Shown here one piece after another: positions 40,501 through 64,000 of a stretch of DNA of 64,000 nucleotides (positions are counted from its first letter, which is position 1; every line of letters begins with the position of its first letter). This DNA is from Euglena gracilis (lineage: Eukaryota): contig CP154954.1 of the NCBI GenBank assembly GCA_039621445.1, positions 11,278,716 through 11,342,715 of the forward strand, given 5' to 3'. The notes under the pieces are model-generated. The model saw only the letters and a program-made list of their open reading frames with translations. It did not search any database and was not told the DNA's origin. A program made the position numbers and the translations under genes.

Positions 40501-41572
40501 CCAGGCCTCGCTGCATGAGCAGCTCAGGGCCCTCAGGCCGGCAAACGCGGGCAAATTAACCCTCCCAGCGTGGCGTGAATATGAAAGTCAGTTTAAATTA
40601 ATTTTCTGCCGGATGGAAAACCCCTCTGAAGAGGAAGCACAGGCCTTGGTTTTACAGCAGCTCCCGGATTCCATGCGTAGGGCAATAATCAGGGAGCAGA
40701 CCCGAAAAAATCAGGATGCGCCCACAGTGCGGCTGTGGCACATCCCTGGGTTGACGGCGGAAAAGGCAACACAGCTCGCCCAGGAGGCTGTGGGTGAGGG
40801 GGAGCCGGTGACAGTCAGGGCACACCGGGACTCCTTCCTCATCAAGCTCTACAGCCGGCGGGCGCTGGAGAGGCTGATGATGAGGAACGGGGCCACGCTG
40901 CAGGGGGGCAATACAGTGAAAATAACCCCCCACGAAACAAAGCTGGGATTGGAAGAAGTTTTTCGACACGCTGAAAATGAGCTGCGGTGCCAGGAACGGT
41001 CTGACAGCTATGGCCGTTCTTGGGGTGGACGGGGGGTCACAGCCCACCAGGAGGACCACTGGGCTGGGGGCCTTGACAATTTGTTAGTCTCTGAGGTAAA
41101 ATCCCAGGAAGCCAGGCCAGCCCAGCCCCAGAAAACGGTTTCACAGCCAGCTGAGGGAGGAGCAAAGGCAGGACCCCCCAAAGGCCCTGAGGGGCCACAG
41201 GACAGGCAATCACGGCACCGGGGCGGGTCTCCTGGAAAGGGACGGGAGGGACGCAGGTCACCCAGCCCGGGGCAAAAGGGGAAGGGGTTCGGCAAGGGAG
41301 CTGGCAAGGGCTGCTCAGAGTTTCGCCCAGCCAGGTCCCCAACCCCTCACCCAGCCACCAACAGGGAACAAACCCCCCCGAGGAGCCCCCGGAGTGGCCC
41401 CTCGGTGGACCAGCCCTGCAGCCAGTGCGGGGCCACAGATCACTGGTCTCGGGAATGCCCAGGAAAGAAGTGTTATGAGTGCGGGAAAACGGGACATCTG
41501 GCACGACAGTGCTGGTGGAGAAAGGGAAAGGGGAAGGGGGCGTCCACACCCCCACGGCGGGGGAGTGCCTGA
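37509..41572 (+). pseudogene. gag: Very long gag (acidic, coiled-coil, Pro/Gly-rich, capsid-like, two CCHC knuckles)
   Basis: ORFs 37422-38288, 38301-38681 and 38703-40007 share one frame broken by single stops. Frameshift near 39870 into 39869-41572 with CSQCGATDHWSREC and CYECGKTGHLARQC. Start uncertain. Confidence 0.8.
37592..37611 (+). promoter_or_regulatory. Primer binding site, tRNA-iMet
   Basis: TGGTAGCAGAGGGGGGTTTG directly after the LTR. Confidence 0.85.
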
Positions 41573-41859
41573 AAAAGCGGGGGCCAGAAGCGAGGGGACG
41601 GGGGCCCAGGGTGCTCCCAGCACGGCCCTCGGAAGGGGGGTAAGGAACAGGCTCACGGAGAGGGTTGGGTTTTGGTCAAGGGAAGGTCCAAAGGCAGATC
41701 CGGACCTGAACCTGCACGGTCCCCCCAGCCCCCCCTGACTGAGACACGAAAAGGGGCTGGGGGGGCCAGCAGGCCCTCTCATTCGACTCTGCCAACCCCT
41801 GGTCTGCGCTTTTCACCAGTGAGGGCAGCCCAGGGGGGGGCTCGGGTCAGAATTCAGGC

Positions 41860-44800
41860 ATGGGACAAAGGGAGAAGGGACACAAGGCGGCTGGCCCTCC
41901 GCAGCAAGCCGCCCAGGGGTCTTCGGGTTCCAGCACACCCGGTCTACCGCAGATCACAACACCAGGAAGGGAGGGGAAAAACACAAAACAAAAAAATGAA
42001 AAAGAAAAAAACAAAACGCTCTCACAGGCGTCAATCAGGGGGGCAGCGAGGGAGGTCATTAACGTTCCTCAAACCAGCAAAGGCACGGATGAAACCGCCC
42101 CCAGCACGGAAAGGGATTCAGGTTTTTCGATTCGCCAGGTGAGGTGCGTCAGGACCGCACCTTCCACCTCAGCCCCCACGCCACAGCCAGCCCCAGCACC
42201 ACTCCCAGCCCGTTCCTCAGGGTTTGGGAGGTCGCCCTCCTGGTGGATCTCCCAGGACTACCACGTCCGGGAGGAGTACGTCAGGGACGTACTCCGCCGC
42301 CTGGGGGTCCAGCCGGAGGTCGACGCCTTTTCTGCCAAAGAAAACCGCAGGTTTGTCCGCTGGTGGGGGCCAGGGAGTGGGGAAGGGGAAGATGCCTTCA
42401 AACAGGACTGGGGCAGGGAGGTTTTGTGGATCAACCCACCTTATAAAAAAATACAGGAGGTTCTCGAAAAAATCAGGAGGGATCAGGCCCATGCCATCCT
42501 GGTGATCCCCAGGTGGCCGGGGCGGCGTTGGTACAGGGAGGCCAGGGGCTTGGCAGTGCGCCAAGTCACGTTCCCTCAGGGAACACGATTTTTTGGCAGA
42601 GGGGAGGAGTTGTGCCGGGGGACCAAGTGGCCCATCACAGCCTTTTTGCTGTGTGGGCATCCAGACCGGTGCACGCTGGAGGAGGTGACACGAAGGGGGA
42701 GGGAGAAAAAAACCAGGTTCGGGACACATTTTTCAGGGCCACCCCCAGGGACCGGGGGGGCCACAGGGGAGGTCAAGCCGGCACACCTGGGGCAGGTGGG
42801 GAGAGCGGACCAGCCCAGGCGGATGCTGGACCTGTTCTGCGGGACAGGTTCAGTGGGGGACGTCTACCGCAGCCTGGGTTACCAGGTCACGTCGGTGGAC
42901 GTGGACCCCAGGTGGCGGCCAGACATTTGTGTTGACGTCTTAAAATGGAATTTTAAAAAACAGTTCCAGCCTGGGGATTTTGAGGTGGTGGTGTGCGGGG
43001 TCCCCTGCACCGAATTCAGCCTGGCCCTGACCACCAGGGAACGGGATTTAAAATTGGCTGATCGGCTGGTGCAGCGGGCCCTGGCCATCATCAGATACCT
43101 CCGCCCACGGCGGTGGTGGCTGGAAAACCCCCGGTACGGTTACCTGCGGACCCGCAGGTACATGGCAGGGATCCCACACGTGGACGTGGATTACTGCCAG
43201 TACGCTGACTGGGGCTACCAGAAGCCCACCAGGATATGGGGCAGCCCCCATGTCCTGGGTCTCCGGCCACGGGTGTGTGACGGCCGGACCTGCACCAACC
43301 TGGAAAGCCCAGTACCTGAGGGGGGACGAAAGGGACGGCACAAGATTCGGCTCAGCAGCAAACACCAAAACCTGCCCAGGCACCTGAAATATCGGATCCC
43401 AGAGGCGCTCATCCGTGACCTGGCCACAGCACCAGCACCGGAGGCCCACGCTGCCGGGTCTCCGGAGCCAGAGCGGGACCCCCAGACAGAGCGAGGGGTG
43501 CCCTCGGTCTTGCTCCGTGAGGTGGGTCAGGGTGCCAGTGAACGGCAGCTGCTGATGCGGGTGCAGGCCAGGGGGCCAGACGGACAGACCCACTTCATCA
43601 ACGCCCTCATTGACACAGGGGCAGAGGTGAACCTGGTCCGAAGAGGCATGCTACCCAGCACATACCTCCTGCCTGCCCCCAAGCCCCTGTCCCTGGTGAC
43701 GGCTAGTGGAGCCAAGATGGAAGGGGGGGAACGTGAGGCAACCCTGGGCCTGGTCCTCCGGCGGGAGGGGGGCCTGGGTCAGGGGGAAGGGGCCCTGTGG
43801 ACGGCCCCAGCCTCCTTCTATGAGGCAGACATCCACGTGGAGGCCATCATCGGCTTTCCGTGGCTGGAGGAAAACCAGCTCGGGGTGTTTCCACATCTCC
43901 GAGCCTTGGTATTGAGGGGAGAGCAGGTGGTCCTCCTTCGGGGACACGACGCGGAGGGTGAGCAAGTTCAGCCAGCAGCCCACAAAAAGGCACAAAAGCG
44001 AGTGAGATACCTGAAAATGGTGGAAAAAGTCAGAGCACTGCGGCTTGCTTTGCCAGAGGCAGCCCTGGGGGAGGACACCGAGGAGCCTGAGTGGGAGGAA
44101 AACCCCCTGCACGAGGATGAGGCGACCCAGGAGACAGTGGCCAAGGAACTCCTGCGGGCAGCCCGGGAGGTCGAAGCACGGGCAGCCCAAGGGGTCATCC
44201 TTGTTCCCGAAGGGGAACAGGTGACCAGCCAGCGGGCTGAGGAGCTCCGGGCAGCCCTCCGGAGGGACTTCGAGGGGGAGGTTCTCCGAGACAGGATTTG
44301 GGGGGAAAGAATCGTTCGGGGGCCCCTGGGGGAAGGGAAAATCGAATTAAAACCGGGATCTGTGGCAAAGAAACAGAGGCCCATCCACCTGACGGGGGAG
44401 AGGCACAGGGCCTTGTGTGACCTAGTGGATGAGTGGGTTCGGGACAAGAAGGTGGAGGAGGGGGTGCCAAGTGCCTGGAGCAGCCCCACATTCGTGGTGG
44501 CCAAGAAACAGGGGAAGTGGCGTGGGGTTGTGGATTTCCGGGCATTAAACGAGGCCACAGTGACGGATGCTTACCCCCTCCCCAGGATTGAAGACATCCT
44601 GGTGAACCAGGGACGGAGGTACCTGTTCTCCGTCCTTGATCTCAAGGATGCCTTCCATCAGGTGCCCCTGCACGAAGACTCACGCCCATACACCTGCTGC
44701 AGCACCCCCCGAGGGTCCAAGCAGTGGTGTGTGGTCGTGATGGGCCTGAAAAATGGAGTGGCCATTTTTCAGCGGGTGATCGACTACTCGCTGAGGGATG

Positions 44801-47800
44801 TGGCTGATGTCGCCAACCCATATGTTGACGACATCATCGTGGGGACCGAGTGGTGTGGCACGGAGGAAGCTACCCTGGAGGCACACGACCAGGACATAAG
44901 GCGAGTGTTGGGGGCACTGCGGGAACACCGCCTGGTCGTGGACAAAAACAAGTGCCGCTTCTTCGTAAGAGAAGTGGAGTTCTGTGGCCACATCCTGGGG
45001 GGAGGAAAACGGAGGCCAGCCCGGACAAACTCATGGCGCTGGAGAAGTGGGAGGAGCCCCGCACGATCACAGCCCTCAGGGGCTTTCTGGGCTTCACCAA
45101 CTACTACTCCAGCTACGTGAAGGAGTATGCCCGGTATGCAGCCCCCCTGATGGAACTCCTCAAGGTGGGACGTGTGGAAGGGAAAAAAGGCAGCAAAAAA
45201 CCTGTGAAATTCGGCCAAACGGAACGGGAGGCCTTCACCGCCCTGAAGCAGGAGCTCCTCCGGGGATTGGAGCTCCACACCATCAACCCGGACCAGCCAT
45301 TCATTCTCCGGGTTGATGCGAGCGACAAGGCGGTGGGGGCAGCCCTGGAACAGTTTTTGGAGCCAACAGAGGGGATGCCCACAGCCGTGGAAGCCACTAC
45401 ACGGAAAACCGTGCCTGTGGCCTTCTGCTCCAGGAAACTCACGGCTGGACAGGTGAAAAGCTGGTCTCCGCGAGAGAAGGAGACCTACGCCATCATCCTG
45501 GCCCTCCAGAAATGGGCCTCCTACATCGGCCTGCAGCCGGTGTTGGTCCTCACGGACCACAAGTCCCTGGAGGCCTTGGCCAAGGAAACCCTGGACACGC
45601 CCAGCGGACCTGCGGGAAGGCGGGGACGCTGGCATGAAATGTTCTCCCGGTTTGACCTTCACGTGGTCTACATCCCGGGAAAGGAAAACGTGGTGGCGGA
45701 TGCCCTCAGCAGGTGGGCATATCCTGCCTCCAAGGCATTTGCCGACATCAGCCTCCACGGGAGCGAGGAGGATGATGAGGCAATGAGGGCCATGATCGAA
45801 GAAGAACGGAGGGAAGAGCGGGAATGCGGGACACCGCACGGAGGGGAGGAACTCCACGTGGCGGTAACAACACGCAGCGGGAGAGACACATCGCAGGCGG
45901 AACGGGCAGCACAGCACAAACCTGGCCCCAGCCCCACAGAGGGGGAGGGGGCTGAGGATTCAGTGCCAGGGGGCCCTGGCCCTGACCCCACAGGGGGGGA
46001 GGGGCCTGTGGACGCCCCCTCGGGAGATTCGGGTCCCATCCTCGCGGGAGGGGAGGGGCCTGGGGTACCTGGGTTGGACACGCGGGAGACACGAGGTTCC
46101 CCACGTGCCCATCTTTTCGTGGATGAATTCGGGAATGAACAGCCGGCAAGAAGGGGGGGGACCTGAGGAACACCAACCAGGGCGAAGAGTTCTGAGTGAG
46201 GACCTGCAGCCAAACCCCCTCATCGATGATCCCCACGGGGGGGATCTCGGGGAACCTGTGGGGGAACCAATTTCACTTTCTCCAGACACGGGGGTGCACA
46301 CCCAGGAGGAGGTGGAGGAGGATCCCACCATCCCAGTGATGGAAAGGGATTGGTCTCGGGCATACGGGACATGCCCGGTGTGGGGGCCTATTTATGCAAG
46401 TGTGCAGGCCCCTGCGGGAGATTGGCCTGAGGGAGTCCGTTTGTACGGGGACAAAATGTACACGGACGGGCTCCTCTGCGTGCCCACCAGCCTGATGGGG
46501 CTCGTGGTCCGGGCCCACCACGGGGACGCGGGCCACCCGGGAGCCTCCAGGCTCTGGCATCAAATGGGGCGGTGGTACAGGTTCGCAGATCCAAGGGGGG
46601 CAGAGAAAATCACCCAAGGCATCCAGCGGCAATGTGAAATCTGCCAAGCCTGTGACCCCTCTCGAGCACCTTTCAAGTGTGCTCTCGAAGCCACCCCTGT
46701 GCCACCGTTCCTCATGGACAGTGTGGCAGTGGACCTGTTCGCCATGCCTGAGGTGACCCACGAGGGCCAGGTGTATGATTATCTGGCCCTGTGCGTGGAC
46801 CGTGAGAGTGGGTGGACAGTGGCCACCCCCCACAAGTACAAGGGCCTGACAGCTGAGGTGGTGGCCAAGGCCATGTTCCGCCACTGGGACATGTTCGGGG
46901 TGCCCTCTGTGGTGACCTCGGACCGTGGCCCCCACTTCGCTTCGGCTTGGTGGCAAACAACGTGTGCCGCCATGGGGGTGAGGCGTGCCTACAGGCAGGC
47001 CTACCACCACCAGGCCAACGGTCGGGCAGAGGTGGCAGGCCAACGGGTGATGAACACCCTGTCCAAGCTCATCGCTGACCTGTCGGTGAAGGAGGCCTCA
47101 TGGGTGGTGCTGTTACCCAAGGCCCTCCGGCACCTGCACGATGTGCCAGGGGAGTCCGGCTTGTCGCCCTACGAGGTGGTCTTCGGGCGACACCGGCCAC
47201 TCCAAGGCCTGCCCCACCAGCCCCCACGAGAGGCCGAGGGGGCAGCCGACTTCATGGCACGGATGCGGGCTATGGACGAGAAGGTGGCCTCAACCTTGAA
47301 TGCCTTGCACGCCAAACGGTGGGCTTCCATCAACGCCAAGAGAAGGGACCCACCTCCCCTGGAGGTCGGTGCCAAGGTGTGGTACCGTCACGAGACACAT
47401 CCGGGCACGGACAAGTTGGCCACCAAGTGGAAAAGGGGGACTGTGGTGGCCCGCCGGGGTCGCCACTCCTATGTGGTGGAGTTGGCCCCGGGGGCCCGCG
47501 AAAAGACACACCGGAGCCAACTCAAGCTCCACGCGGAGGACGAGTTTTCCACCGACCCCCTCCCACTGTTCTATTTCAACGACAAGGCGGCCCCCCTAGA
47601 GGTGGGACCGGATGAGTGGGTGGTGGAGGAGATTGTGAGCAGCCGGAACCACCCGGAAACGGGGGTCCCGGAATTTCAGGTGAGGTGGAAAAATTGGGAT
47701 CCGACGGATCTCCAATGGCTGCCTTGGTCGGATTTCTTCCCCTCCTACAACGAGGATGTGGTGGATTATTGTGCAGCCAAGGGGATTCCGTTGGAGGTGG

Positions 47801-48471
47801 TGGTATTTCTCCGCCCCGGGAAGAGGGGGGGGCGGGACGGGGTCAATAAGGGGGGAGAGGGGCAGGAGGTGGAGGCGAGGGGACGGCGGGTGCGGGGATT
47901 GTGGTGGTGGCGGAGCACACGCACATCCTTCGCTCTTGTGCGTAGGATGCAGCGCTACGTGCCCCGTCGCCCCTACGTCCCTGGACCTCTCCCCGTCGCC
48001 CCCCCGCCACCATCGGCCGCCGAGGCGGAGGCCGCCCTCCTCACCCTCTTGCCCGCCCCCAAGCGCCCACGCCTGGACACCCCCGCGGAACCTCCCCAGC
48101 CGGCCGACTCCCCCCGACCACCGTCCCCCACACGCCCGGAGGACCTCTGCTCCCTGCTGGCCTACCTCGAGGGGCTGGCGCCGGAGGTGGAGCACCTCCG
48201 GAGCGTGGTGGGGCGGTTGGTGGGCGAGGGAGCGCCGCAGCGGGTGGATGCGGAGGTGCAGGCAGAGGCGCCTGGCGAAGGGGACGACCAGGGGAGCGAG
48301 GAGGAGGCAAGCGAGTCCGGGTCGTTGGACCTCCTCGCCGCGGCTGCCACGGCCGGGGACCCCGAGGCCGAGGACGCCGAGGGGGACCAGGTCGGGGAGC
48401 CCGGCGGGGTGCTCCAACTGCTCCTCGCGGAGTTCGAGCCCTTGTGGCCCGGCTCCGATGAGGACCCCTAA
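41860..48471 (+). CDS. pol: Pol polyprotein: N6-MTase - C5-MTase - protease - RT - RNase H - integrase - chromodomain - C-terminal extension (two apparent frameshifts, near 45020 and 46155)
   Basis: DTG 43612-43620; LDLKDAF; YVDD 44821-44832; RVDASD, EKETYAI, TDH, ADALSR; HHCC, D 46732, D 46921, NGRAE; chromodomain from 47611. Confidence 0.92.
42256..42660 (+). other. Dam-like (DIRS-type) amino-methyltransferase domain in Pol
   Basis: DY...EVDAFS..EN...DAFKQDW...WINPPY (NPPY 42433-42444)...AILVIPRW...WY; colinear with the DIRS MTase in this window. Confidence 0.88.
42823..43425 (+). other. C5-cytosine methyltransferase-like domain in Pol
   Basis: Motif I LDLFCGTG, II SVD, III VDV, IV GVPCTEFS (PC 43003-43008), VI LENP (ENP 43123-43131), VIII-like QKPTRIW, X-like RIPEALIRDL. 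Confidence 0.85.
47611..47780 (+). other. Chromodomain
   Basis: EWVVEEIV...EFQVRWKNW...QWLPWSDF. Confidence 0.8.
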
Positions 48472-50101
48472 GCCCCCCCCCCCGCCGACCCAGACGTAGC
48501 CTGGGCCGGCTTACCTGTGGAGGCTAGCCCACCGGAGGGGGGGGGCAGAAAATGGGGTTGGTGCGGAAAACCTTGGAGGGACCGAGCTGATTTCCTTTGT
48601 TTGTTGTTGTTGTTGTGTTTTGCAGGTTCAATCTCAATTTCAATTTCAGCGAAGTCAACCCACAGTGCCCCTTGGCTACGGGCGAGGGGGCCAGGAGGGG
48701 CGACGGGACGCCCCGGTGGGGCGAGGAGGCCACAGGAGCACACCGGGGGGGGGTCCCAAGGGTTGAGGGGGCCCACAGCCCCCCCAAGGCTGGCCTCGCC
48801 CACCACCCGCGGCCCACATAGCGCCCCGAGGGGCAAGCGCCACACGAGATGAGGCGCCCACGCGCCGCACATGCACCACACCGCACGGTGCGGCGCCCGA
48901 GGGGCCCACAGGGGGTCCACAGGCGCCTGCGGGCCCGAGGGCCAACAGGGCCACGGAGGCCCAACGGGTGCCTCGAGCCCCCGGGTGTGCATTATTTTTT
49001 TCCTGTTTTTTGAGCCCTTCAAGTGTTCGGTCGATCTCCATTTCATTTTCGTGTAGCGTTGTCATTAGGCGGTGGGGGTGCCCGTGGCCAAGTTGGCTCC
49101 GGGGGGGGGGGCACCTGCCCATTTTGTTCAATTTGGTTGGCCACACCCCTCTTCAGCCCACCGTGCCGAGGGAGGGGGGGGGGGCGCCTGCCAATTCTTC
49201 CCGATTTTGACGGTTGGCTACCCCCCTCATCGGCCCACCGCGCCGAAGGAGGGGGGGGGGGCGCCTGCCAATTTTTGACCGTTTTTTTTTACGGTCGTCC
49301 ACACCCCTCCTCGGCCCACAATGCCGGGGGAGGGGGGGGGGCGCCTGCCGCTTTTCCACCAATTTTACCAATTTAAAAAAAATACACCCCGTCGGCCAAT
49401 TTTTGAAGCTAACCACGCCGGGGGGGGCAAACTCCAACCCCCCTCCACACCGGAGAGAGCGGGGGGGGGGGGCAGCCCCCCCCCCCTCTCAAGAGGACGG
49501 GCCCCAGCCAAGGCGGCCCGGCTCGCAACGCGGAGGGGGGGGCAGCCCCGACCCCCTACACGGGGGGGGGGGCAGCCCCCTCCTCCAAGGAACGGGCCCC
49601 ACCCAAGGCGCCTCCCCGGCGCCCCCTCCAGCACGCACCCCTGCCCCAGGGGGCCTTTGGCCCCGGGATACCGGGCAAGGCGGGGCGGCCCTGCTGGGTT
49701 GGTCAAATATTTCCTTCTCAACATGCAGGAGCTTTCCACCCCGGGCCAAGCGGGGCCTGGGGGGGGAATCACAATTACACATTGGCATCGAGTGTTGCGG
49801 GGGGGGGGCATTCCGCCCCTACCCATGGGCCAAGAAGGCTCACGGGACCGGAGGGGGAGCGGAGGGGCCCCAAGCGGTGCCTCCCCGGGTCACGAGCCCG
49901 GAGGCGCCCGTCCCCCTTCTCGCCCTCCCTTGTACCTCCTCCCCGACAGCACGCGCCACACACGGCACGTGGCGCCACCGCTTGTGCGTTTCAACAAGAA
50001 AAAAATACATTTTTTTCGCAGGCCCTAAAGCAAAAAGGGGGGGGAGGGTGGCACCTCGGACCGGCAAAGGAGTCGAATTTAAATTGCACGGCAATTTTTC
50101 T

Positions 50102-50112
50102 GAGGAGGGGAG
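50102..50112 (+). promoter_or_regulatory. Polypurine tract
   Basis: GAGGAGGGGAG immediately before the 3' LTR. Confidence 0.85.
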
Positions 50113-50773
50113 TGTGCGCGGTCCGAGGGTGCCCGCCCCAAGGGGGGGTCTCAAGCGGGCCCAAAGGGGCCACGAAGGGCCGCGAGGGGGCTCCAAGGTC
50201 CCCAAGGGCCTTTTGAGGCCCCACTGGCCCCCAAGGGGGCCCCACAGTCCATTTTGACCAAGCCAAGGAGGGGGCAGTTGGAGGGGGCCAACAGGCAACC
50301 CCCAAGGGGATGCGCAAGCCCTGCTGGGCTTTGCGCAAGCATGCGCACCCCCTTGGTGGTCGCTTGGGATGGCGCAATTCATTAAGAATTGCACAGAGTA
50401 TACCAAGTAGCCCCCCCCAGCTGTAGCCCCCCTCCAATTGTACATTTTCTGTTCACAGGGCTCTGTTTACACTCTGTTTTATTTGTCATTTGGCATTCAA
50501 TTGTGTTTGCATTTGCAACAATCAAACAATTCAAGCAAACAAGTTCAAGTCATTGATTATTATTGATTATTCATTCAAGTTCAATTGACTGGACCTCAAA
50601 AGTATGTCATTTTCAACATCACCATCCTCAGCAACACCCACCCCTACCCCATTTTTCCTCCAAGGGGAAAACCCCCACCAGGTGGGCCCGATGGGCTCAA
50701 ATTTAAACGATCCTACGCGGGTTGCGCCGCCAGGGGTCCCTTCACAGGGACCTCAGGAGCGGCGACCCCTACA
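50113..50773 (+). repeat. 3' LTR
   Basis: Direct repeat of 36930-37591. Confidence 0.95.
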
Positions 50774-55433: not shown

Positions 55434-55823
55434 TGTAAACCCTCCCCCAAAATAATCCCCCCCAAATAATACCCCCCCCCCTCGGGGTACGACTTCTGGC
55501 CACCAAAATAATACCCCCCTCCCCCAGTTTCGGGCCGAAAGCCCGGATTTTTGACCTGAAAATGTAGGTAAAAATCACAATCTCTGACAATAAATTACGA
55601 AGAAAAATCGATTTTTCTGGATTACCTGGCCTCCAAGAAATGCTAAATTTCATGAGAAAGTACAAAAAAAATGATCCCAAAGAGGGGTTTTGGCACTATT
55701 TTTGCTCCTACGGAACTTCGAAAATTTTCGAAAATTTTTGGGAAATAATACCCCCCCCCCTCGGGCAGGGACTTCGGGCGGAAAAAAAAATACCCCGGGG
55801 GGGTATTATTTGGGGGTTTTACA
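55434..55823. mobile_element. MITE-like element
   Basis: Imperfect TIRs TGTAAA...CCCCCAAAATAAT / ATTATTTGGGGGTTTTACA with internal AAATAATACCCCCC repeats. Confidence 0.5.
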
Positions 55824-56755
55824 TGTCTCGAACAGAAAATTGCATTTTGGGGCATTTTGAAAAGCCTTGTGGGCCCAAAAAGTTTCAGGATCCAAAATTG
55901 TACTAACTACTACTAAACTAACTAATTGTACTAACTAAACTAACTGGACTAACTGGGCGGGGGATGGTCTGACTACTGAAAAGTAAACCGCCAGAAAGTG
56001 TTTCAAGCAGGCGGGGAGTGTTCAGGACAACTCTGAGCGACAGCCCCTTCGTGACTTTGCGGATGTCGACCATTGTTTCCCATGGTTTTCTCTCATCGTC
56101 AATGGAGACCCAAAAATTTGATTTTTGGGTACCCCCCCAAAATTTTTTGGCCGATTTTGGGACCCCCCCAAAAATACAAAAACAAAACCCAACCTTGGGC
56201 CACTGGAGCAAAATGATGTAATAGGTCGAAATGGTGTCCCAGGGGGGCCTTTGCAGGCCCATGGTCTTTGCAGGACACTGGGGTAAAATGGTGTCACAGG
56301 GAAGTTGGGGTAGCAAAATGTTTTTGAACGAAAAGGTATCAGCAGGTGAACTGAGTTTTCTTTGTGGACACAGGTTTACATTGGAACTTTCAAACAAAGC
56401 AACAGTAAATGCACAGAAATGGAATGCAAATAGGTTCCAGGTGACAAAGGGGGACAGACAACCGATGTTGGTGCAACCAGTGGCCCAAAAACTGGTAAAG
56501 AGAAACAGAATTGGGAAATGATGTCTGATAGATGATGTGAGACAACTGGGGTGAAGATGGAAGACACCTTTTGAAAACAATCTGGGGGGTTGGTGGAAGA
56601 TGTCAGCAACAAAAGGTCTCTTTGCATGCAAATGGAAAGACTGATGTAGGGTTGGTTGTGAGAAGGGTGGGTATGAGAAGAATGCAGGAGACTTTTCAAA
56701 GCCAGAGATTGGTTGGATCCATGGTGGGTTTGCAGTGGTTGGACATGGTAAAAGG

Positions 56756-57194
56756 GGCAGCATGAACATTGCACTGTGCATAGCAGCAGTCTGCAGAATG
56801 TACAATGTCATGCTAGATAGTACTTTTCCATGTTCTGCAACACAAATTGTAGAATTGCGAATAGCCTATCCTTTCTCGGGTTTGCCTCCCTGCCTGTCGG
56901 CCTAATTAAACCCTCACGTGGGAACAGAACCAGGAGTGGAACAAAAAAAAAGGTCTTTCACTTAACTATTAGTTTTTGGTGCCTTTGGGCTTATGCAGAG
57001 CACAAGGCAAACCATGTGTTATTTTGGAACTTCAGTTCCAGTGGACTTCTCCTATCGGAGTTCAAATCTTCAAATCTTGGTTTGCCCTTTCAGGCCAATG
57101 AAGCGTGAAGCAAAATAATACCACTTGTGAATAGGGAGGCAAATACGAAATAGGATAGGCTATTCCTAATTCTGCAATTTGTGTTGCAGAGCAT
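56756..57194. mobile_element. Fold-back / MITE-like element with ~135-bp TIRs; right TIR split by the non-LTR insertion and completed at 62542-62625
   Basis: 56830-56891 pairs with 57133-57193, and 56756-56839 pairs with 62542-62625. Confidence 0.7.
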
Positions 57195-57201
57195 CACAAG
57201 C

Positions 57202-57227
57202 ACTTTCTGAGTGTCTATTTTTTTTCG
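57202..57227 (+). ncRNA. Euglenid spliced-leader exon (exon only; no GT donor or SL intron follows)
   Basis: ACTTTCTGAGTGTCTATTTTTTTTCG, matching the Euglena gracilis 26-nt SL as I recall it. Confidence 0.85.
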
Positions 57228-57539
57228 TCTCCACATGAACATGTCTGACAAGCGGGCGGGTGGCCCGTAAAAGTTCACTGCAGACCCCCAAGGAGACGAA
57301 GTTTACAATCAACAATTGTCAAGTTGGTTTGATTGCTGCAGTTTCTGCTGTTCATCTCTGGAGTCAGCCTTCTTCGTGGAGAGCAAGGTCCATTGATTGC
57401 AGGGTGAGATTCAGCCACCCAGCAGCAGCACATCGACTCAAGCCCTGGGAAATCCAGCCCCAGGGGTGAGATTCAGCCACCCAGCATCAGTACATCGACA
57501 TCTGCGATCCAAGTCCTGGGAGATCCAGCCCCAGGAGAA

Positions 57540-60500
57540 TTGTTCACCATGGAGCCCAAGGAACTGAAGCAAAATGCAGCAGAGGTCGAGCCCATAATGG
57601 CTCCCACTACAGCTGCAGCAGGCACAGCCACTACAACCACAATTTGCCCAATCATGCTGAACATTCTGATCATCAATGTTGTCTTGGCCCATGTGTTTTG
57701 CATTTCCCAAATTCAAATTCACATGGTGGAAGGGAAAAACATGCAGCGGGCTTCAAACAGCCAGCAGCATTTGTCAGCCAAGAATTTACAGCAGGGTGAG
57801 ACCCAGCCACCCAGCACCACAGACCCCAGACATTACATCTTTGTACCTGGCCCTGGGACATCCTGTGCACCCAGTTCCCCCCCAGAAGAATCTTCCCCAG
57901 TCTGCCCTGGAGAGTTGGCCCAGGAATTCAGCCCTGTCGTGCCCGCCCAGGGATTCAGCCCCTCAGCAACAGCCCGGGAGCCCAACCCTGGAGTACCTGC
58001 TCAGCATTCCACCCCCTTATTGCCAACGGGGGGGGCAACCCCTGAGGGGTCAACCCAGAACTTCAGCCCCGGAGGTTCAACCCAGCAGGAGGTGAGTCAG
58101 ACGTTCGGCCTGCAGTGTCAATGCTATAATCCTGCTGCACTCGATGTCAAAACTTTCCAACTCAAGCTGTCTGCCTTCCTGCTCCGCTTCTCCTCAACGC
58201 AGCATTTGACAGACATTGGACCAAAAGCCCCCATTCAACAACCATCCAGCCGTCAGCATTGCACAGGGGATTTGGCAGACGTTGCAGCCGGCCCTGAAAG
58301 ATCCAACCCCTGCCAACAACCTTGTGCATCAGCTTTGGCGGGCATCGAGTCAGCAGCCCCCAATGGTCAACAGGGTGAGATTCAGCCACCCAGCAGACAG
58401 CACAGCCACAAAACAAGGACCCGGACATACAACCGCTCACCTGCTTCTGCCGCACACCCTGACCAGACGCAAAAAACAGGCCAGACAGTCGACATTGCCT
58501 CACGCCATGTTCCTGGAGCAAAAAAGCCATGTCTCTTCTCGGCACTAAGGAATTCCTTGGCCTTAAGCTACCACTGCCGGTCGGGCAGAGGTGACGACAT
58601 CCTGACATCGGGCGACGTGGAAGCAAACCCGGGACCCACCCCCCTGGCGGATCCGCCGACGGGATCCATGGATATCGACCTGACTACGGACCCCACAAGA
58701 GCGGTGGGGTTCCTACTGGCCACAACGCCGGTGCCCCCTTCCGCTCTAGGCCCACTCGAGGAGACCTCGACGCAGGACGCCCGGGACCTTCAACAACTTC
58801 TGCAGACCCTCCTTAGCCGACCACCACCGGAAGCCGCTCTCCCCATTGATGGTCCCAGAGCCACGACCCGCGCCCCTTCACAGCCTTGGGGAATTTCCGA
58901 TCGAGGGCCCGGACTGACGGGTAGAGGCGGGCTCCCCAGTTGCGGTGATATTGAGGAAAACCCGGGCCCGAGAACAGGGTGGCCAAAAAGAGGCCGAAAA
59001 CACAGCCGGCCGGCTCAAAACATTGATACCGGGGCTTGCTTGGGGCCAGAGATCTCGGTGGCCATTGACGTTGATGACGCGGCCCCTGCCCCGGCGGCGT
59101 CGTCCGCTCCTTTGCAGGGGGCGATGGACACCGATGGACCCACTTTGCCTTTCGTACCCGGATGCCGACGGGAAGGAACTCCCCTTTCTCAGCCCTGCCC
59201 TTTGCTCGAGCCGACCTGGGACGCCATTTCGCATGACCTCAGGGGGACCATCGCTCACATCCCGCGGGGTGCGGTGCAGGCGGTGGCTCAAATGTACGCA
59301 ATTCTACTGAGAGACTACAACCAGCGCCCCTCGTGGGAGTCGTTGCACGCGCTGTGGTGTATGCCGAAGGCGGTGCTGGCACCCTTGGCACGCGCCGGCA
59401 GAAACCATTGGGCACAACTAGGGAAAGCCATCGGAACCAGGGCACGCGCCTATCTCCTGCAACCAGTCGCAACCTCTTGGCAGCAGTCACAAAAGCCGGC
59501 CGCAAACCCTGTTTCCTCGGTGTCCACACGCTCCGCCGCAAGCAGAGCGGAAGAGGTCCAGACGGAACGCTTCATCCGCCGGATGGAAACGTTGGTGGCC
59601 AGAGGGGCTGTGGGGAAGGCCTGCCAGTTGCTCCTCTCCGAAGGAGTGCAGGACGCGGCTCATCCCGCCGTGCGTGAGAGATTACACCGGATGCACCCAA
59701 CAGAGGCGGAACCCGGAAGGGGATCCACTTCGAGGTGGAAACCACTATCACGCAGCGACGATGTGGGAGACGACCGCCGTATGGTGAAACATGCAGTACG
59801 TAGCTTCGGCCCGGAGTCTGCAGCAGGCCCCTCAGGACTTCGGCCTGAGCACCTGAAGGCCTTGCTCAGCGACGAGGCCGGGGGCTCGGCAGAGGATGTC
59901 CTGGATGAGTTGACGGAGTTTGTCTTCGGGTGCGTGCTTGGGGGAATCCCCAATGGGGCAGCACAAGTGATGTGTGCTGCACGCCTGACCCCCCTCCGAA
60001 AAACCAAAACCGGGACAGGGGCACCCACAGACCCCGTGGGCAAGACATCCCCAGAAGACGAGGGCACTCGGCCCATCGCAGCTGGGGAAACCCTGCGCCG
60101 CCTGGTGGCGAAAGTGCTAATGTGCCACCCGGAGGTCCGTCGGTCCCTGGCCACAGCCCTACCTCAGCAACTGGGAGTGGGCGTACCTGATGCATGCGCT
60201 CTGATAGGAATGGGTATCCAGCAGCTAGTGGACGGCCTGTCTCATGTTGGAAAGACAGATTGGGGACTGCTCCAGCTGGATTTTTCAAACGCATTCAACT
60301 GCATCTCTCGAGAAAATTTGCTGGCAGAAGTCGCGGAGCGATGCCCCCCGCTGCTTCCATGGTTGGAGAGTTGTTACGCCCGCCATTCTCAGTTGTATCT
60401 CGGAAAAACATCACTCCGAAGCAAGTCCGGTGTGCAGCAAGGGGACCCGTGTGGCCCGGCTGCCTTTGCCCTCGGCATACAGTCCCTCTTGGACAAGCTG

Positions 60501-62126
60501 CAAGGTATCGTGGGCTGGCAAGCCTGGTACCTCGATGATGCCCACATCATGGGCACGCCGGAACAGCTCGAAAGGGCAGTACGGCTGATCCTGAACGAGG
60601 GACCACAGATTGGTGTGGGACTCAACCTGACAAAGTGCAAACTCTGGGGGCCTGCATTTGTTGCTCGTGGAGAAGGCCTGCTTCAGGGCATCCCAGTGGA
60701 ACCTTTCACACCCGGCTCTGGCATCCGTGCGCTAGGAGTGCCCGTCTGCCACCCGGCAGGACGCCCGGACTTTGCCACTGTCCTTTGGGAGGAGCGCCTC
60801 TCGGGAGTCCGGAAAGCGTGCGACCTGCTGCAATTGCTGCCGTCGCCGCACCTACAGTTCACGGTGCTCAGGCAATGCCTTGATGCATGCAAAGTAAACG
60901 ACCTGCTTCGAACCACACACCTCTCGGGAGCCAAGGCGCCATGCCATTCCTTTGCCACTCTCCTTCGGGACACAATGTCCGTCATCACCGCTCGCCCGCT
61001 GGATGATAAACAGTGGGCACAAGCCTCCCTGCCAGTCCGCCTGGGGGGGCTCGGGATCCGAGACCCAGAGGTATCCAGAGCACCGGCAAGGTGGGCGGCC
61101 ATCCTTGACTTCCTCTCACGAGCGGATAGCACTCTGTGCCTACCCGAGGGTTGCCCCCAGCTCCCACGGGATTACGGAGAGACGGGCTTGGTGGTCTCGG
61201 GCCTTACCAAAGGGGTGGCGCCTGTGGGTGACCTCCTAACGGACCCAAGCAAGGTGAGTTCCTTGTCTCCCTCAATGGTGAGACAAAAGTGGTGGACAGA
61301 TGAGGTCCTCAAGGTCCGGGCGGACCTGCTTTTGGCTGGCCTTGTTGGAAATGACGCGGTCCGTTTCGCATGCCAGCGGAGGCCGCACGCCATGGCGTGG
61401 GCAGCGGTCAACCCCTCTGCCCCCCTGAAGACCCTCATCCCACCGGCAGAATTCAGAGCCCTGACTCAGTGGTCATTGGGATGCCAAGTTTGCCCCACAA
61501 CGACAGATGGCTCCTTGCCGGAATGTCCCCGTTGCCACCAACAAATGGATGTTGGAGGAAACCACCTTGTCTGCTGCCCCAAAAACAACACTTTGCGGCG
61601 ACATGGTGCCCTCCAGACGTTCGTTTTGGACCTGGCGAGAAGGGCCGGTTTCATGGCTCGACGAGAAGAGGTGGCTGACAACCGGACAAGACCCGGAGAT
61701 GTCTTCATCACGAGGTTCGACGCGGACGGACCTGCAGCAGTGGATGTCACGGTCCGCCACCCGTTGCAACCAGCAAACCCGGTCTCCTCAAAGGACGCCT
61801 TAGCACGGTGGCACGAACTACAAAAGGGAGACAAAGAACGCAAGTATGCAGCCACCTGCGAACGGCTGGGATGGACGTTCATCCCGTTTGTGGTTGATTG
61901 CTTCGGAGGGATGGGGGAGCGAGCGGCAGGATTCATATCCAAGTGCCTCCGCACTGTGTTGGCGCAGACCGATGTTCCTCAACGACGATCGTCAGAGGCC
62001 ACGGTATGGCAAGCGCTGAGTCTAACGTTGGCCAGGGAATTGGCTCGCCAGCTGGCTTGGGGGGCAGTGGCGGAGCCATCAGGCGACGTTGATCTCACTA
62101 CCCACACCCCATATGCCACGGAGTAA
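57540..62126 (+). CDS. Non-LTR polyprotein: low-complexity N-terminus, two 2A-like motifs, RT, CCHC finger, restriction-like endonuclease (first ATG 57549)
   Basis: SAAGPSG, RPIAAGETLRRL, LDFSNAFN, GVQQGDP, YLDD; CPRC...HLVCC, RH, RPGD, AVDVTV, KERKY, FIPFVVDCFG. Intact 1528 codons. Confidence 0.95.
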   Translation: MFTMEPKELKQNAAEVEPIMAPTTAAAGTATTTTICPIMLNILIINVVLAHVFCISQIQIHMVEGKNMQRASNSQQHLSAKNLQQGETQPPSTTDPRHYIFVPGPGTSCAPSSPPEESSPVCPGELAQEFSPVVPAQGFSPSATAREPNPGVPAQHSTPLLPTGGATPEGSTQNFSPGGSTQQEVSQTFGLQCQCYNPAALDVKTFQLKLSAFLLRFSSTQHLTDIGPKAPIQQPSSRQHCTGDLADVAAGPERSNPCQQPCASALAGIESAAPNGQQGEIQPPSRQHSHKTRTRTYNRSPASAAHPDQTQKTGQTVDIASRHVPGAKKPCLFSALRNSLALSYHCRSGRGDDILTSGDVEANPGPTPLADPPTGSMDIDLTTDPTRAVGFLLATTPVPPSALGPLEETSTQDARDLQQLLQTLLSRPPPEAALPIDGPRATTRAPSQPWGISDRGPGLTGRGGLPSCGDIEENPGPRTGWPKRGRKHSRPAQNIDTGACLGPEISVAIDVDDAAPAPAASSAPLQGAMDTDGPTLPFVPGCRREGTPLSQPCPLLEPTWDAISHDLRGTIAHIPRGAVQAVAQMYAILLRDYNQRPSWESLHALWCMPKAVLAPLARAGRNHWAQLGKAIGTRARAYLLQPVATSWQQSQKPAANPVSSVSTRSAASRAEEVQTERFIRRMETLVARGAVGKACQLLLSEGVQDAAHPAVRERLHRMHPTEAEPGRGSTSRWKPLSRSDDVGDDRRMVKHAVRSFGPESAAGPSGLRPEHLKALLSDEAGGSAEDVLDELTEFVFGCVLGGIPNGAAQVMCAARLTPLRKTKTGTGAPTDPVGKTSPEDEGTRPIAAGETLRRLVAKVLMCHPEVRRSLATALPQQLGVGVPDACALIGMGIQQLVDGLSHVGKTDWGLLQLDFSNAFNCISRENLLAEVAERCPPLLPWLESCYARHSQLYLGKTSLRSKSGVQQGDPCGPAAFALGIQSLLDKLQGIVGWQAWYLDDAHIMGTPEQLERAVRLILNEGPQIGVGLNLTKCKLWGPAFVARGEGLLQGIPVEPFTPGSGIRALGVPVCHPAGRPDFATVLWEERLSGVRKACDLLQLLPSPHLQFTVLRQCLDACKVNDLLRTTHLSGAKAPCHSFATLLRDTMSVITARPLDDKQWAQASLPVRLGGLGIRDPEVSRAPARWAAILDFLSRADSTLCLPEGCPQLPRDYGETGLVVSGLTKGVAPVGDLLTDPSKVSSLSPSMVRQKWWTDEVLKVRADLLLAGLVGNDAVRFACQRRPHAMAWAAVNPSAPLKTLIPPAEFRALTQWSLGCQVCPTTTDGSLPECPRCHQQMDVGGNHLVCCPKNNTLRRHGALQTFVLDLARRAGFMARREEVADNRTRPGDVFITRFDADGPAAVDVTVRHPLQPANPVSSKDALARWHELQKGDKERKYAATCERLGWTFIPFVVDCFGGMGERAAGFISKCLRTVLAQTDVPQRRSSEATVWQALSLTLARELARQLAWGAVAEPSGDVDLTTHTPYATE
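58614..58637 (+). other. 2A-like ribosomal skipping motif 1 (GRGDDILTSG-DVEANPGP)
   Basis: Exact D(V/I)ExNPGP consensus, in frame. Confidence 0.85.
58947..58970 (+). other. 2A-like ribosomal skipping motif 2 (GRGGLPSCG-DIEENPGP)
   Basis: Exact consensus, in frame; close to T2A (EGRGSLLTCGDVEENPGP). Confidence 0.85.
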
Positions 62127-62625
62127 AAAAGGGGGGGTCAGGGCGAACACCATGTAAACACCTGCGGCCGCTGAGGCCAAGCCAGGCAGCCTACACCGGC
62201 CACCAAGGGCCGGTATTATTGGCTTTGTCCCGATGACACAACATGGTAAGCACACCTGAGAGAAAGCCGAAAGGCCAGACGAACCCGAAACCTCCATTGA
62301 GCACACCGGGGAACAGCCTGCCCCCAACAAGGCCACCCCACCCCGCCTGCTCCCTGCCACCTCACCCCTCGGGCCCTGGCCCCCACATGGCCGATTCTGG
62401 GTTCACCTGACCACCTTACCCTGAGACTGTCGCTTCTGTACATAGCCTTACCCCCTGAACACGTCAAATCCAGTAGGCAGTGCCACTGGTCGGTGGACTT
62501 GGTTCGCCCCACCACCGTAGCGTAGTTTAACCCCGACTTTCTGCAGAGCATGGAATAGTACTATCTAGCATGACGTTGTACATTCTGCAGACTACTTCTA
62601 TGCATAGTGTCATGTTCGTGCTGCC

Positions 62626-63101
62626 TGGTACACAGTGTGCAGTGATTGGGGGGTCAATGTTGGAGGGGGCCTTTTCAGGCCCATAGCCTTTTTTTGCCAC
62701 TGGCTGGTTTGTGGGGGCCTTTTCAGGCCAAAAGACTGGGGGGGCCTTTTCTGGCCCGGTGGCTGGAGGGGCCTTTTCAGGCCCATTAGCAGGACCAGGG
62801 CCTTTTCAGGCAAGAGGCCCGGTTGAGGGGGCCTTTTCATGCCCAATACAGCACATAGAAGCAAGACCAAAAAGGGCTGAGAAGGCCAAGAACTTCAACC
62901 GCACGTTGAACTGCTCGAGCTGGAGTTCTTGTATGTCTTGTCTTGAGCTTGTACTTGTGCTTGACTTCTATTTCTGCCTGCACCAGCAGGACTTCTTCTG
63001 CCTGCACCAGCAGGACTTGTAAGTAACTTCGATGATATTTGAACTCTTAACTTGGATATTGACCCCACCTGGGGCTTTCAATTGTCCGCCATGTATTATG
63101 T
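62626..63101 (-). mobile_element. 5' fragment of a second SL-linked element (KRPPQ repeat ORF 62610-62870)
   Basis: Follows the minus-strand SL copy. Its start CACATAATACATGGCGGACAA resembles CACATGAACATGTCTGACAA after the plus-strand SL. Confidence 0.5.
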
Positions 63102-63125
63102 GAAAAAAATAGACACTCAGAAAGT
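63102..63125 (-). ncRNA. Second SL exon copy (7 T, lacks final G)
   Basis: ACTTTCTGAGTGTCTATTTTTTTC, preceded by CACAAGC like the first copy. Confidence 0.8.
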
Positions 63126-63127
63126 GC

Positions 63128-63546
63128 TTGTGGAGCTACACTCCGCCATGGGACACTAGCCCTAGGGTTCGCCTTGCCTCAGCTCCTGACGCTTGGCGAT
63201 GGTGTGCTTGATAGGGGTGGCTTGTCCTGGCGCCGAAGTGGAAATCAGCAACCAGAGGCTTGACCCTGGCGTGCCTGATGGGTAAGGGCCGGTGAACCAT
63301 CGGTTCACCAGCGGTTGCCTACCTGACCTGTCACGATTAAACCATTGCGGCTTTGGCCGAGCAGTAACACTAATCGGAACTTCCCGCCGTACGGCGGCCA
63401 TTCCTGACTGGCAGCCCCGCAAACCATGGTTGGTTCAAGTCCTGTGCACTCCCGACTTGAAGTTTAGCTTATAGGGACTCGAACCCGCGCGTCCAGAAGA
63501 TTGCACCGATCGCAGCCGGCCATATGTCTGGTGGATTAACACAGGA
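63128..63546 (-). mobile_element. 419-bp non-coding SINE-like insert between SL-derived 13-bp direct repeats
   Basis: GCACTTTCTGAGT at 63559-63547 and 63127-63115; B-box-like GGTTCGAGTCC at 63485-63475. Confidence 0.55.
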
Positions 63547-63559
63547 ACTCAGAAAGTGC

Positions 63560-64000
63560 ATGAAAAACGCGGTGGTGGGGCGAACCGAATCCACCGACCA
63601 CTGGCACAGCCTACTGGGTTTGAGTGTGCAGGAGAGAGGGAGGCTATATACAGATAGGGAAGCCCCATGGATACTCAGAGGGGTTACAATGCCCCCCATA
63701 TTGTACCCCCCCATAATGTACCCCCCATGGGGTACCCCCCCACCATGGACCATGACCTTGGCCCCGCCCATATTGTACCCCCCCCCATAATGTACCTCCC
63801 CGCCAGAAAATGGCTCCCAGGGGGGTACAATATGGGGGGGGCATGGTAAGCAGAGGCTGAGGGCGGTTTGGTTGCCGTGGACCCCGGGGGAGCGAGTGGC
63901 GGGGGTGTGTAGGGCAAGGCTGGTCGAGGTTCAGGGCGGCTCCTCTCATTCGATTGGTTCGAGTATTGGGGAGATGTGGTGGCGGTGCGTGGCTGCGGTT
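63560..64000 (-). mobile_element. 3' UTR of another CRE-like copy, running off the window end
   Basis: 63560-63656 is a diverged inverted copy of about 62432-62530 and abuts SL nt 1-11. Confidence 0.7.
63687..63846. mobile_element. 160-bp MITE with TA target duplication
   Basis: TIRs C(A/C)ATGCCCCCC..ATATTGTACCCCC flanked by TA on both sides; internal repeats of the same motif. Confidence 0.65.

Follow-up and report, generated by a model that had tools for sequence, protein, structure and literature searches.

Can a retrotransposon that has only one open reading frame (ORF) make several separate proteins from it? The question is raised by an element of ~5.3 kb lying in a 64,000-nt stretch of Euglena gracilis DNA (GenBank assembly GCA_039621445.1, contig CP154954.1, positions 11,278,716 to 11,342,715 of the forward strand), which is called the window below and whose first letter is position 1. 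The element is a retrotransposon lacking long terminal repeats (a non-LTR retrotransposon), with a reverse transcriptase (RT) and a restriction-like endonuclease (RLE), and its ORF contains two peptides of the 2A, or StopGo, type. With a probability of roughly 0.7, we read these peptides as working StopGo sites of the polyprotein encoded by an intact RLE-type element. We favor this reading because both cores are complete and of a type with listed activities of 90-99% in viruses, because the peptides have been kept amid change, and because they appear to bound folded domains in relatives of the element.

Two 2A peptides in one open reading frame

The two peptides, SGRGDDILTSGDVEANPGP at 58581-58637 (2A-1) and TGRGGLPSCGDIEENPGP at 58917-58970 (2A-2), are both in frame within one plus-strand ORF, and their final prolines are spaced by 111 codons. 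The first-pass annotation of this DNA had proposed such a pair, and the translation reproduces it exactly, the span it had given (58560-58970) enclosing both peptides. Skipping at both sites would give three products, and the sizes annotated for them, as well as the PRTGWPKRGRK start of the last, agree with our recomputation. The features are the following (pI, isoelectric point; P0002 and similar names denote proteins of relatives).

57549 to 62126, plus strand: single ORF of 1525 codons plus stop (ATG at 57549, stop at 62124-62126)
57549 to 58634, plus strand: predicted product 1, 362 aa with pI 6.6 and much Pro, Ala, Ser and Gln; it has a hydrophobic helix at about aa 29-60 and 2A-1 as its end
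58581 to 58637, plus strand: 2A-1 StopGo peptide, SGRGDDILTSGDVEANPG followed by P, 63-76% identical to 2A peptides of P0002 and P0003
58635 to 58967, plus strand: predicted product 2, 111 aa, pI 4.2, acidic, rich in Pro, Leu and Thr, ending in 2A-2
58917 to 58970, plus strand: 2A-2 StopGo peptide, TGRGGLPSCGDIEENPG followed by P, positioned as the last 2A of P0002, P0003, P0035, P0040, P0041 and P0043 (tolerance ~30 aa)
58968 to 62123, plus strand: predicted product 3, 1052 aa, pI 8.65, RT-RLE protein with an R2-like overall fold (AlphaFold2, Foldseek and VIA)

The frame is already open from 57408, and the ATG at 57549 stands in a strong context, CACCATGG. In the ORF frame there are no stops among the first 362 codons, against nine and seven in the other two frames.

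The class-A core D(V/I)ExNPG, followed by P, is complete at both sites (GDVEANPGP and GDIEENPGP). Both peptides also show the GRG-x5/6-GD pattern of their clade, with an upstream context of ...DDILTS... in 2A-1 and ...GLPSC... in 2A-2. We take the upstream GRG to be present in the T2A peptide of Thosea asigna virus too, for which the printed evidence is the core GDVEENPGP alone. Given the composition of the ORF, the number of D[VI]ExNPGP motifs expected by chance is 4.9e-6 for the ORF and 4e-4 when the window is read in all six frames. For NPGP alone it is 0.023 in the ORF, and shuffling the ORF 20000 times produced two or more NPGP in three cases. A six-frame scan of the window found five NPGP, with the D[VI]E context at 2A-1 and 2A-2 only.

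Concerning activity, a published table gives 94-99% for viral GDVE[ES]NPGP and GDIEKNPGP cores, and it has GDIEENPGP for Avisivirus with no activity figure beside it (PMC8623073). The core alone is described as inactive, with ~10 residues of suitable upstream context being needed (Odon 2013, PMC3708506).

An R2-like enzyme behind the second site

According to sequence matches and the structural model, the predicted product behind 2A-2 is an R2-like RT-CCHC-RLE enzyme. Its domains were located with Pfam and with a 13-row alignment (A1) of the last 1056 aa of the ORF with relatives.

60207 to 60647, plus strand: reverse transcriptase core, Pfam RVT_1, ORF aa 887-1033 (E 3.9e-12; 46.7 bits, cut-off 29.6)
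61524 to 61577, plus strand: CCHC zinc knuckle, C1326, C1329, H1339 and C1343, invariant or nearly so in the 13 rows
61665 to 61835, plus strand: PD-(D/E)xK core of the RLE, E1373, R1381-P-G-D1384, D1399-V-T-V and K1429, of which E, R, D1399 and K vary little or not at all across the 13 rows

The YLDD motif of the RT lies at 60528-60539, and its D996 and D997 are invariant in the same alignment. RVT_1 is the sole Pfam match in the ORF: at E values up to 0.1, neither an AP-endonuclease (APE) match of the Exo_endo_phos type nor a zinc-finger or Myb DNA-binding domain was found in it. The ORF can thus be assigned to an RLE-type non-LTR element, as first annotated, on the presence of the RT, the C-terminal CCHC and the PD-(D/E)xK core and on the absence of a detected APE.

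Sequence matches in the Protein Data Bank (PDB) were R2 retrotransposon proteins only (E 0.012), with a weak second HMMER stretch placing RPGD...DVTVRH on KPD...DVTVRY of the R2 nuclease; matches in the protein Atlas were RVT_1 clusters only. The AlphaFold2 model built on the 13-row alignment has a predicted local distance difference test score (pLDDT) of 82.6 and a predicted template modelling score (pTM) of 0.81; its first ~70 residues are disordered, and the region ahead of the RT is helical or disordered. R2 proteins take the first seven places among the Foldseek chains (E 9.6e-23 to 2.9e-18 over 928-1016 alignment columns), and ORF2p of the human long interspersed nuclear element (LINE) LINE-1 ranks behind them (4.3e-15 and weaker). 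The VIA aligner gave its highest Z score to LINE-1 ORF2p (24.3, 562 residues), over model residues 94-845, which correspond to the RT part. The R2 proteins scored Z 20.4-21.4 over 713-785 residues and reached model residue 1041-1045, thus including the C-terminal nuclease. The basic start of this protein had been annotated as resembling a nuclear localization signal or AT-hook; it is not conserved in relatives and falls within the segment modelled as disordered, and we do not retain that description.

Conservation of the 2A peptides among relatives

A word-indexed search with the RT-RLE part retrieved 28 relatives, the three nearest long ones being P0002 and P0003, at 49-50% identity, and P0007, at 34%. 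An exhaustive search returned 10829 representatives with E values of 0.001 or less, 802 of them at 1e-30 or less. NPGP is present in 11 of 176 relatives and the GRG peptide type in seven, with three NPGP sites each in P0002 and P0003, four in P0007 and two in P0040. If the count is restricted to relatives that show 20 or more residues ahead of the position matching the first residue of the RT protein, the carriers are 10 of 53 overall and 6 of 9 at 300 BLASTP bits or more. A seventh strong-scoring carrier, P0043, is a called protein that begins inside its 2A (MSLLSCGDVEANPGP).

The close carriers have the pattern (S/T)GRG-x5/6-GD(V/I)ExNPGP in common. In six of the seven carriers (P0002, P0003, P0035, P0040, P0041 and P0043), the last 2A lies within ~30 aa of the position of 2A-2; in P0007 it lies 400 residues upstream of that position. 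Two N-to-H variants (HPGP) are found in P0035, a change reported to lower 2A activity (Odon 2013, PMC3708506).

Then, we placed the 2A peptides on a FastTree phylogeny of the RT-RLE part, which comprises the window copy and 90 relatives spanning RT to RLE (91 rows; 86 partial rows, including P0120, were left out). Its supports are local SH-like (Shimodaira-Hasegawa-like) values only, and the tree contains several flagged long branches and rows of outlying composition. All eight GRG-type carriers fall within one clade of 14 rows (SH-like support 95), and two state changes, one gain and one loss, suffice on the tree. Branch lengths in the clade are 0.2-1.1 changes per column, so the 2A trait survived deep divergence. 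Judged from these sequences, the 2A peptides are inherited; they are old, and their conservation is confined to one clade and does not extend to the wider family. Their conserved position across relatives of 33-50% identity argues for selection. A lack of conservation among family members was the finding that the first-pass annotation had named as speaking against itself; within the element's own clade, the motifs are conserved.

Four other relatives scoring 173-239 BLASTP bits (P0120, P0121, P0162 and P0175) carry NPGP behind quite different upstream sequences, e.g., ...RDLTHDGDVEPNPGP and ...LLLLQSGIHPNPGP. P0121, P0162 and P0175 are outside the GRG clade in the tree, and P0120 is absent from it. 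These peptides are a hint that 2A was gained independently within the RLE type.

Modules joined by 2A peptides

When the N-terminal 520 residues of the window frame were compared by BLASTP with P0002 or P0003, the 2A peptides alone aligned; the connector is therefore kept while the modules change. In P0003, a SLBP_RNA_bind domain (aa 40-101, E 2e-13, above the Pfam cut-off) stands ahead of the first 2A, and a Dam-like match (463-509) stands between the second and the third. P0002 has the same build with weaker matches. In P0035, P0040 and P0041, the same Dam-like module, with an NPPF or NPPY motif, lies ahead of their 2As. Going by these domain matches, the 2As in relatives delimit real domains, an SLBP-like RNA-binding domain and a Dam-like methyltransferase. 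The Dam-like NPPY module also occurs in the window outside the element, at aa 184-307 of the ORF at 41743-45120, where it is 35% identical over 127 residues (E 2e-18) to the module of the 2A relatives. The distant relative P0008 has a weak Peptidase_C48 match (E 0.0016, below the cut-off) and no 2A.

The upstream part of the window copy is of another kind. No Pfam domain was found in the 362-aa or the 111-aa piece, and its N-terminal 473 aa have no homologue among proteins of 260-828 aa, the only lengths searched. A single-sequence AlphaFold2 model of the upstream pieces has a mean pLDDT of 43.5, exceeding 70 only at the helix of residues 29-82, a result that proves neither disorder nor foldlessness. 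The 111-aa piece has no significant similarity to the segments behind the 2As of relatives. We also considered it as a duplicate of the N-terminal linker of the RT protein and rejected this idea, again for lack of significant similarity. Three of the four listed differences between this segment and other copies are synonymous. The cargo in the lineage of the window copy looks like two fast-evolving, mostly unfolded-looking segments. The annotated expectation of separate ORF1-like products, accordingly, is not borne out for the window copy, which lacks a domain, homologue or confident fold there, and does find support in some relatives, such as P0003, whose first module is of SLBP type by homology.

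The element and its copies

The limits of the element were read from contig joints and word depth.

57201 to 62518, plus strand: whole element, ~5.3 kb, an intact copy (probably) of a very high-copy non-LTR family
57201 to 57548, plus strand: 5' untranslated region before the ATG, with two adjacent related units of ~62-71 nt at 57402-57535
62127 to 62518, plus strand: 3' untranslated region, whose last 55 nt (62464-62518) are far more abundant and seemingly common to other repeats

The copy family was read from contigs of public runs: X1 is DNA, X14 comes from a second organism, X15 is guessed to be RNA and X16 is a leaf-litter metatranscriptome. The element is matched by 5297 contigs in X1 and 2168 in X14, and the window contains one copy. 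Its 5' end is approximate (57190-57218). Contigs of the DNA runs link 62517/62518 head-to-tail with 57201-57218, and right behind 62518, 88 contigs in X1 and 45 in X14 depart into unlike sequence (agreement ~0.35). These joints and diverse flanks place the element at about 57201-62518 and speak against a single fixed target. Summed word depth in X1 goes from ~1800-3400 at 57558-58273 to 60000-88000 at 61500-62200, a 5'-to-3' rise of the kind that 5' truncation leaves in LINE families. Around the element, long direct terminal repeats were looked for and not found. With RVT_1 and YLDD, a fold like that of R2 and LINE-1 ORF2p, no LTRs and 5'-truncated dispersed copies, it is a non-LTR (LINE) element. 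In X16, near-identical contigs cover parts of 59392-62560 only.

The number of 62-71-nt units differs among copies, as shown by joints from 57437 to 57510 and from 57383 to 57510, which skip 72 or 126 nt, and from 57537 to 57399, which goes back 139 nt. The units came from a separate repeat search; Tandem Repeats Finder reported no array in 57100-58700. Such varying 5' units are reminiscent of monomer-type LINE promoters. Pieces of 36 nt of the 5' unit occur at 57402, 57464, 57794 and 58373, and within the 362-aa leader they are in frame as GEIQPPS or GETQPPS. At the other end, the X1 depth of the last bin is 529330, against 60000-88000 just upstream, and 67 X1 contigs diverge before 62464. 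The tail seems to be common to other, perhaps non-autonomous, repeats, and an inverted copy of its 54 nt lies at 63570-63623. Its RNA fold is not better than that of shuffled sequences (z 0.56).

Evidence on variants comes from the best-supported 40 of 382 variant places. Among these, 34 are in the ORF, 24 being synonymous and 10 non-synonymous, and the leader shows indels of 3 and 12 nt as well as a +1/-1 pair whose two members have the same depth. The synonymous excess, the frame-keeping indels, the stop-free leader frame and the context of the ATG together fit a family active under selection on the ORF. The window copy is probably intact and recently active.

Proposed mechanism and alternative explanations

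Under the proposed reading, translation would start at the ATG at 57549. Whenever a D(V/I)ExNPG has been made, the nascent peptide would act from within the exit tunnel to keep the Gly-Pro bond from forming; the chain would be released and the ribosome would resume from the proline. One mRNA would then yield the 362-aa leader and the 111-aa acidic, Pro-rich piece, each with a 2A tail, and a third chain, the 1052-aa RT-CCHC-RLE protein with a free N-terminal proline. Some ribosomes would drop off at a 2A, so that each site would lower the product behind it, leaving the enzyme scarcest, like ORF2p relative to ORF1p in two-ORF LINEs. As a trait of the lineage, GRG-type 2As would join differing cargo modules to a conserved RT-RLE. 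The analysis shows the motifs, their frame, the order of the domains, the R2-like fold, the copy-number pattern of the family, and how 2A is conserved and positioned in the clade; from sequence we infer skipping and how efficient it is, which codon starts translation and whatever the upstream pieces may do.

Several points weigh against this reading. Both upstream products are without a homologue (among proteins of 260-828 aa), a Pfam domain or a confident fold. In the 2A-2 peptide, Pro follows Leu at a place where Leu, Phe or Met follows it in all ten canonical (D[VI]ExNPGP) GRG-type peptides from relatives, and since upstream context matters for 2A (Odon 2013), the efficiency of 2A-2 may be low. 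Among relatives at 200-300 bits, 2 of 35 carry NPGP. Within the clade, P0032, P0034 and P0006, with visible upstream sequence, lack 2A and form the sub-clade of the loss, a Cys/His-rich segment being directly joined to the RT protein in them; the remaining three clade rows begin too late to show the site. No in-frame NPGP was found in the 39 metagenome loci with a frame open for at least 20 codons upstream, out of 80 distant relatives (25-34% identity) available as DNA. Conservation of the 2A motifs among the genome's own copies is unreadable from the best 40 of 382 variant places, and the 2A region is covered in RNA contigs at a depth of 0-3.5 (X15) and 0 (X16), which says nothing on expression. 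From the literature, highly active 2A was reported in only 43 of 580 retroelement contigs (bioRxiv 10.64898/2026.09.24.754024), and many eukaryotic 2A-like peptides are argued to mainly lower protein abundance (bioRxiv 10.64898/2026.06.17.732966).

This last argument leads to the idea that the peptides are attenuators, at which most ribosomes stall or drop off, keeping the RT-RLE scarce, with separation of products being secondary. It overlaps the proposed reading and differs in emphasis. In the same preprint, 59% of the ORF2p-associated and 70% of the ORF1p-associated 2A-like peptides tested belong to a 'reduced abundance' class (bioRxiv 10.64898/2026.06.17.732966). Expression ~70% lower has been reported for the second position of 2A constructs, behind the peptide (PMC5438344), and the upstream pieces of the window copy look functionless. 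Yet the 2As bound SLBP-like and Dam-like domains in relatives, which is sensible only if separate proteins are wanted, and both cores are canonical, resembling those for which high activity is listed in viruses; we therefore hold pure attenuation to be unlikely. We give still less credence to the idea that only 2A-2 matters, translation starting downstream, e.g., at the Met of ...TGSMDIDL... just after 2A-1, and the 362 codons being a leader that is open by descent and makes no product. Such a start would agree with the 36-nt unit that the leader shares with the untranslated 5' repeats, with the lower G+C of its first 300 nt (0.49 against ~0.6), with its lack of a homologue or fold and with the DNA depth, which is lowest there. 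However, it sits badly with 362 codons free of stops (nine and seven in the other frames), with the strong CACCATGG context and with listed indels of other copies that keep the leader frame; moreover, nothing would maintain a complete canonical 2A-1 in a leader that does not code.

The motifs could also be inherited relics, now inactive, in an ORF translated as one 1525-aa protein. The proline at the conserved Leu-Leu position of 2A-2, the decaying HPGP variants of P0035 and the complete loss of 2A in one sub-clade would suit this explanation, but both cores are intact at every GD(V/I)ExNPGP position despite 382 variant places in the family, the context of 2A-1 is standard and the position is conserved across relatives of 33-50% identity, which makes relics very improbable. 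Finally, an origin of the motifs by chance or from an unrelated virus-derived insert can be regarded as refuted. NPGP alone can arise by chance at the rate given above, but the expectation for full motifs is minute, both are read in frame with the RT, seven relatives have a peptide of this type, and Pfam found no viral domain in the ORF. Working StopGo sites in a single-ORF polyprotein thus remain our preferred reading.

Surroundings of the element in the window

The whole window appears to consist of repeats and transposons, and no Rfam family was found in it. A Ty3/gypsy-like LTR retrotransposon occupies 38000-50500 on the plus strand (G+C ~0.62), with a zinc knuckle, RT, RNase H, integrase and chromodomain. 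Its ORFs and the flanking motif sites of the non-LTR element are the following.

39866 to 41572, plus strand: ORF of the Ty3/gypsy-like element
41743 to 45120, plus strand: ORF of the Ty3/gypsy-like element, Pol-like
44829 to 46166, plus strand: ORF of the Ty3/gypsy-like element
45868 to 48471, plus strand: ORF of the Ty3/gypsy-like element
62659 to 62851 and 56237 to 56267: flanking motif sites
63692 to 63842 and 55443 to 55816: flanking motif sites

The Dam-like NPPY module mentioned above sits in the Pol-like ORF and is followed by a stretch weakly resembling a C5 DNA methylase (PF00145, E 0.0086, below the cut-off). Gypsy elements with Dnmt3 have been described in a charophyte, and Dam-like enzymes in DIRS elements (PMC5890265).

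Near the non-LTR element, there are inverted repeats of 35-84 nt with 87-94% complementarity (56756-56839 with 62542-62625, 56830-56891 with 57133-57194, and 57190-57224 with 63103-63137). An inverted copy of the element's own 5' end lies at 63103-63137, and these repeats are probably fragments of other copies and of other repeats. The short dispersed or tandem motifs that flank the element are GGGGGCCTTTTCAGGCCC (six copies) and CCCCCCATATTGTACCCCCCC-type units (eight copies). Other pieces in the window are an RT fragment at 1985-3052 and an RNase H at 34380-35612.

Novelty and significance

RLE-type elements have been described as making one undivided multifunctional protein (PMC3708506, PMC3894237). 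A 2025 survey reports up to three 2A instances per eukaryotic gene, and a preprint reports 330 contigs with class-A 2A from reverse-transcribing elements, mostly 'non-LTR-like' and with the nuclease unclassified (bioRxiv 10.64898/2026.09.24.754024). The first-pass annotation knew of no 2A pair in an element of the RLE clade. For RLE-only elements we likewise found no report of 2A in the literature, although synonyms may escape such a search and supplements of 2026 preprints may hold members of the clade; 2A-like peptides are reported for Dualen/RandI elements, which have both RLE and APE. What is new, then, is 2A recoding in an RLE-only, R2-like LINE lineage, with several peptides per ORF serving as module connectors; the general phenomenon is well known.

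The finding matters as an RLE-type lineage in which a single ORF is a string of 2A-joined modules, conserved across relatives of 33-50% identity. If the peptides work, they would offer single-ORF LINEs a natural way to obtain from the same mRNA both a partner that binds RNA and an enzyme kept scarce. They would also provide natural T2A-like variants with different contexts for the study of upstream residues, and a marker for tracing the capture of modules by retroelements. The weight of the finding is limited by the 2026 preprint that already reports hundreds of 2A-bearing, mostly non-LTR-like contigs.

Classification and comparison with known systems

The RLE-type groups are CRE, R2, R4, NeSL and HERO (PMC4640811). 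The element had been labelled CRE-like, which its insertion target does not support: the window has no Rfam family, the 3' flanks are diverse and a spliced-leader target was not seen. Membership of the R2 clade was rejected, with no zinc-finger or Myb match in Pfam at E values up to 0.1, no rRNA in the window and diverse flanks, the likeness being architectural only. Nor was the element assigned to NeSL/Utopia, since N-terminal zinc fingers and an Ulp1-like protease were not found in its ORF, nor a U2 or spliced-leader target in the window. Dualen/RandI was rejected because it requires APE together with RLE, and APE was not found. The diverse flanks are compatible with HERO, an RLE-type group that is mostly not target-specific.

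The best structural match over the whole length, from the N-terminal extension to the RLE, is the R2 protein (PDB 9nl3, 8gh6, 9nl2, 9dou and 8ibw-z). The identity to it is 14-16%; unlike R2, the element has no detected N-terminal zinc-finger/Myb domain and no rDNA target, and for R2 no 2A was found in the literature.

Among RLE elements, NeSL and Utopia are the nearest functional parallel. NeSL and Utopia-1_TSP have an Ulp1-like protease ahead of the RT (PMC4640811), that is, a device splitting the polyprotein before the RT, which is a protease there and a skipping peptide here. They are target-specific (spliced leader, U2), in contrast to the diverse flanks of the window family. Dualen elements, which also carry an RLE (PMC4640811, PMC3708506), resemble our element in having a 2A-like peptide with cargo ahead of a LINE enzyme and differ by their additional APE. 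In the ORF2p of Dualen/RandI from Haematococcus lacustris, the 2A-like peptide is accompanied by N-terminal cargo (deubiquitinases and pentatricopeptide repeats, PPR), and a 2A-like peptide is also described in a Symbiodinium ORF2p (bioRxiv 10.64898/2026.06.17.732966).

Methyltransferase modules in retroelements are known from SymbioLINE-Dnmt and from DIRS elements with Dam-like methyltransferases, where the enzyme is a separate ORF1 or part of Pol (de Mendoza 2018, PMC5890265). The methyltransferase module ahead of the RT in P0002, P0003, P0035, P0040 and P0041 is similar to these. Unlike them, the relatives have the module joined via 2A, and the window copy itself is without it.

Several 2As in one ORF are also found in RNA viruses: Providence virus has three (PMC8623073), and picornaviruses with multiple 2A-NPGP are described (PMC11512398). 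These share with the element the presence of several NPGP per ORF and the same core type (GDVE[ES]NPGP, GDIEENPGP), whereas here the carrier is a chromosomal retroelement without a viral domain. One could go further and propose that this RLE lineage uses a T2A-class peptide as a standard connector to gain, swap or drop modules (SLBP-like, Dam-like or orphan) ahead of an unchanged RT-RLE, as a polycistronic cassette, and that the near-identity to the insect tetravirus 2A reflects exchange between retroelements and RNA viruses, not convergence. We put this forward as a speculative idea that is, on balance, rather doubtful.

Heras (2006) is said to be among the sources for 2A-like peptides of APE-type non-LTR elements. 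Such peptides occur in L1Tc/ingi of trypanosomes and in Rex1, L2, Crack and CR1 of animals, where two roles were proposed for them, setting a leader apart from the enzyme and adjusting how much of the enzyme is made (PMC3708506, PMC3894237). Like these single-ORF elements, ours has GD(V/I)ExNPGP in frame in the N-terminal part of its RT ORF. APE-type elements, as described, have an N-terminal AP-endonuclease and one 2A, whereas the element studied here has a C-terminal RLE, two sites, with up to four in its relatives, and exchangeable modules.

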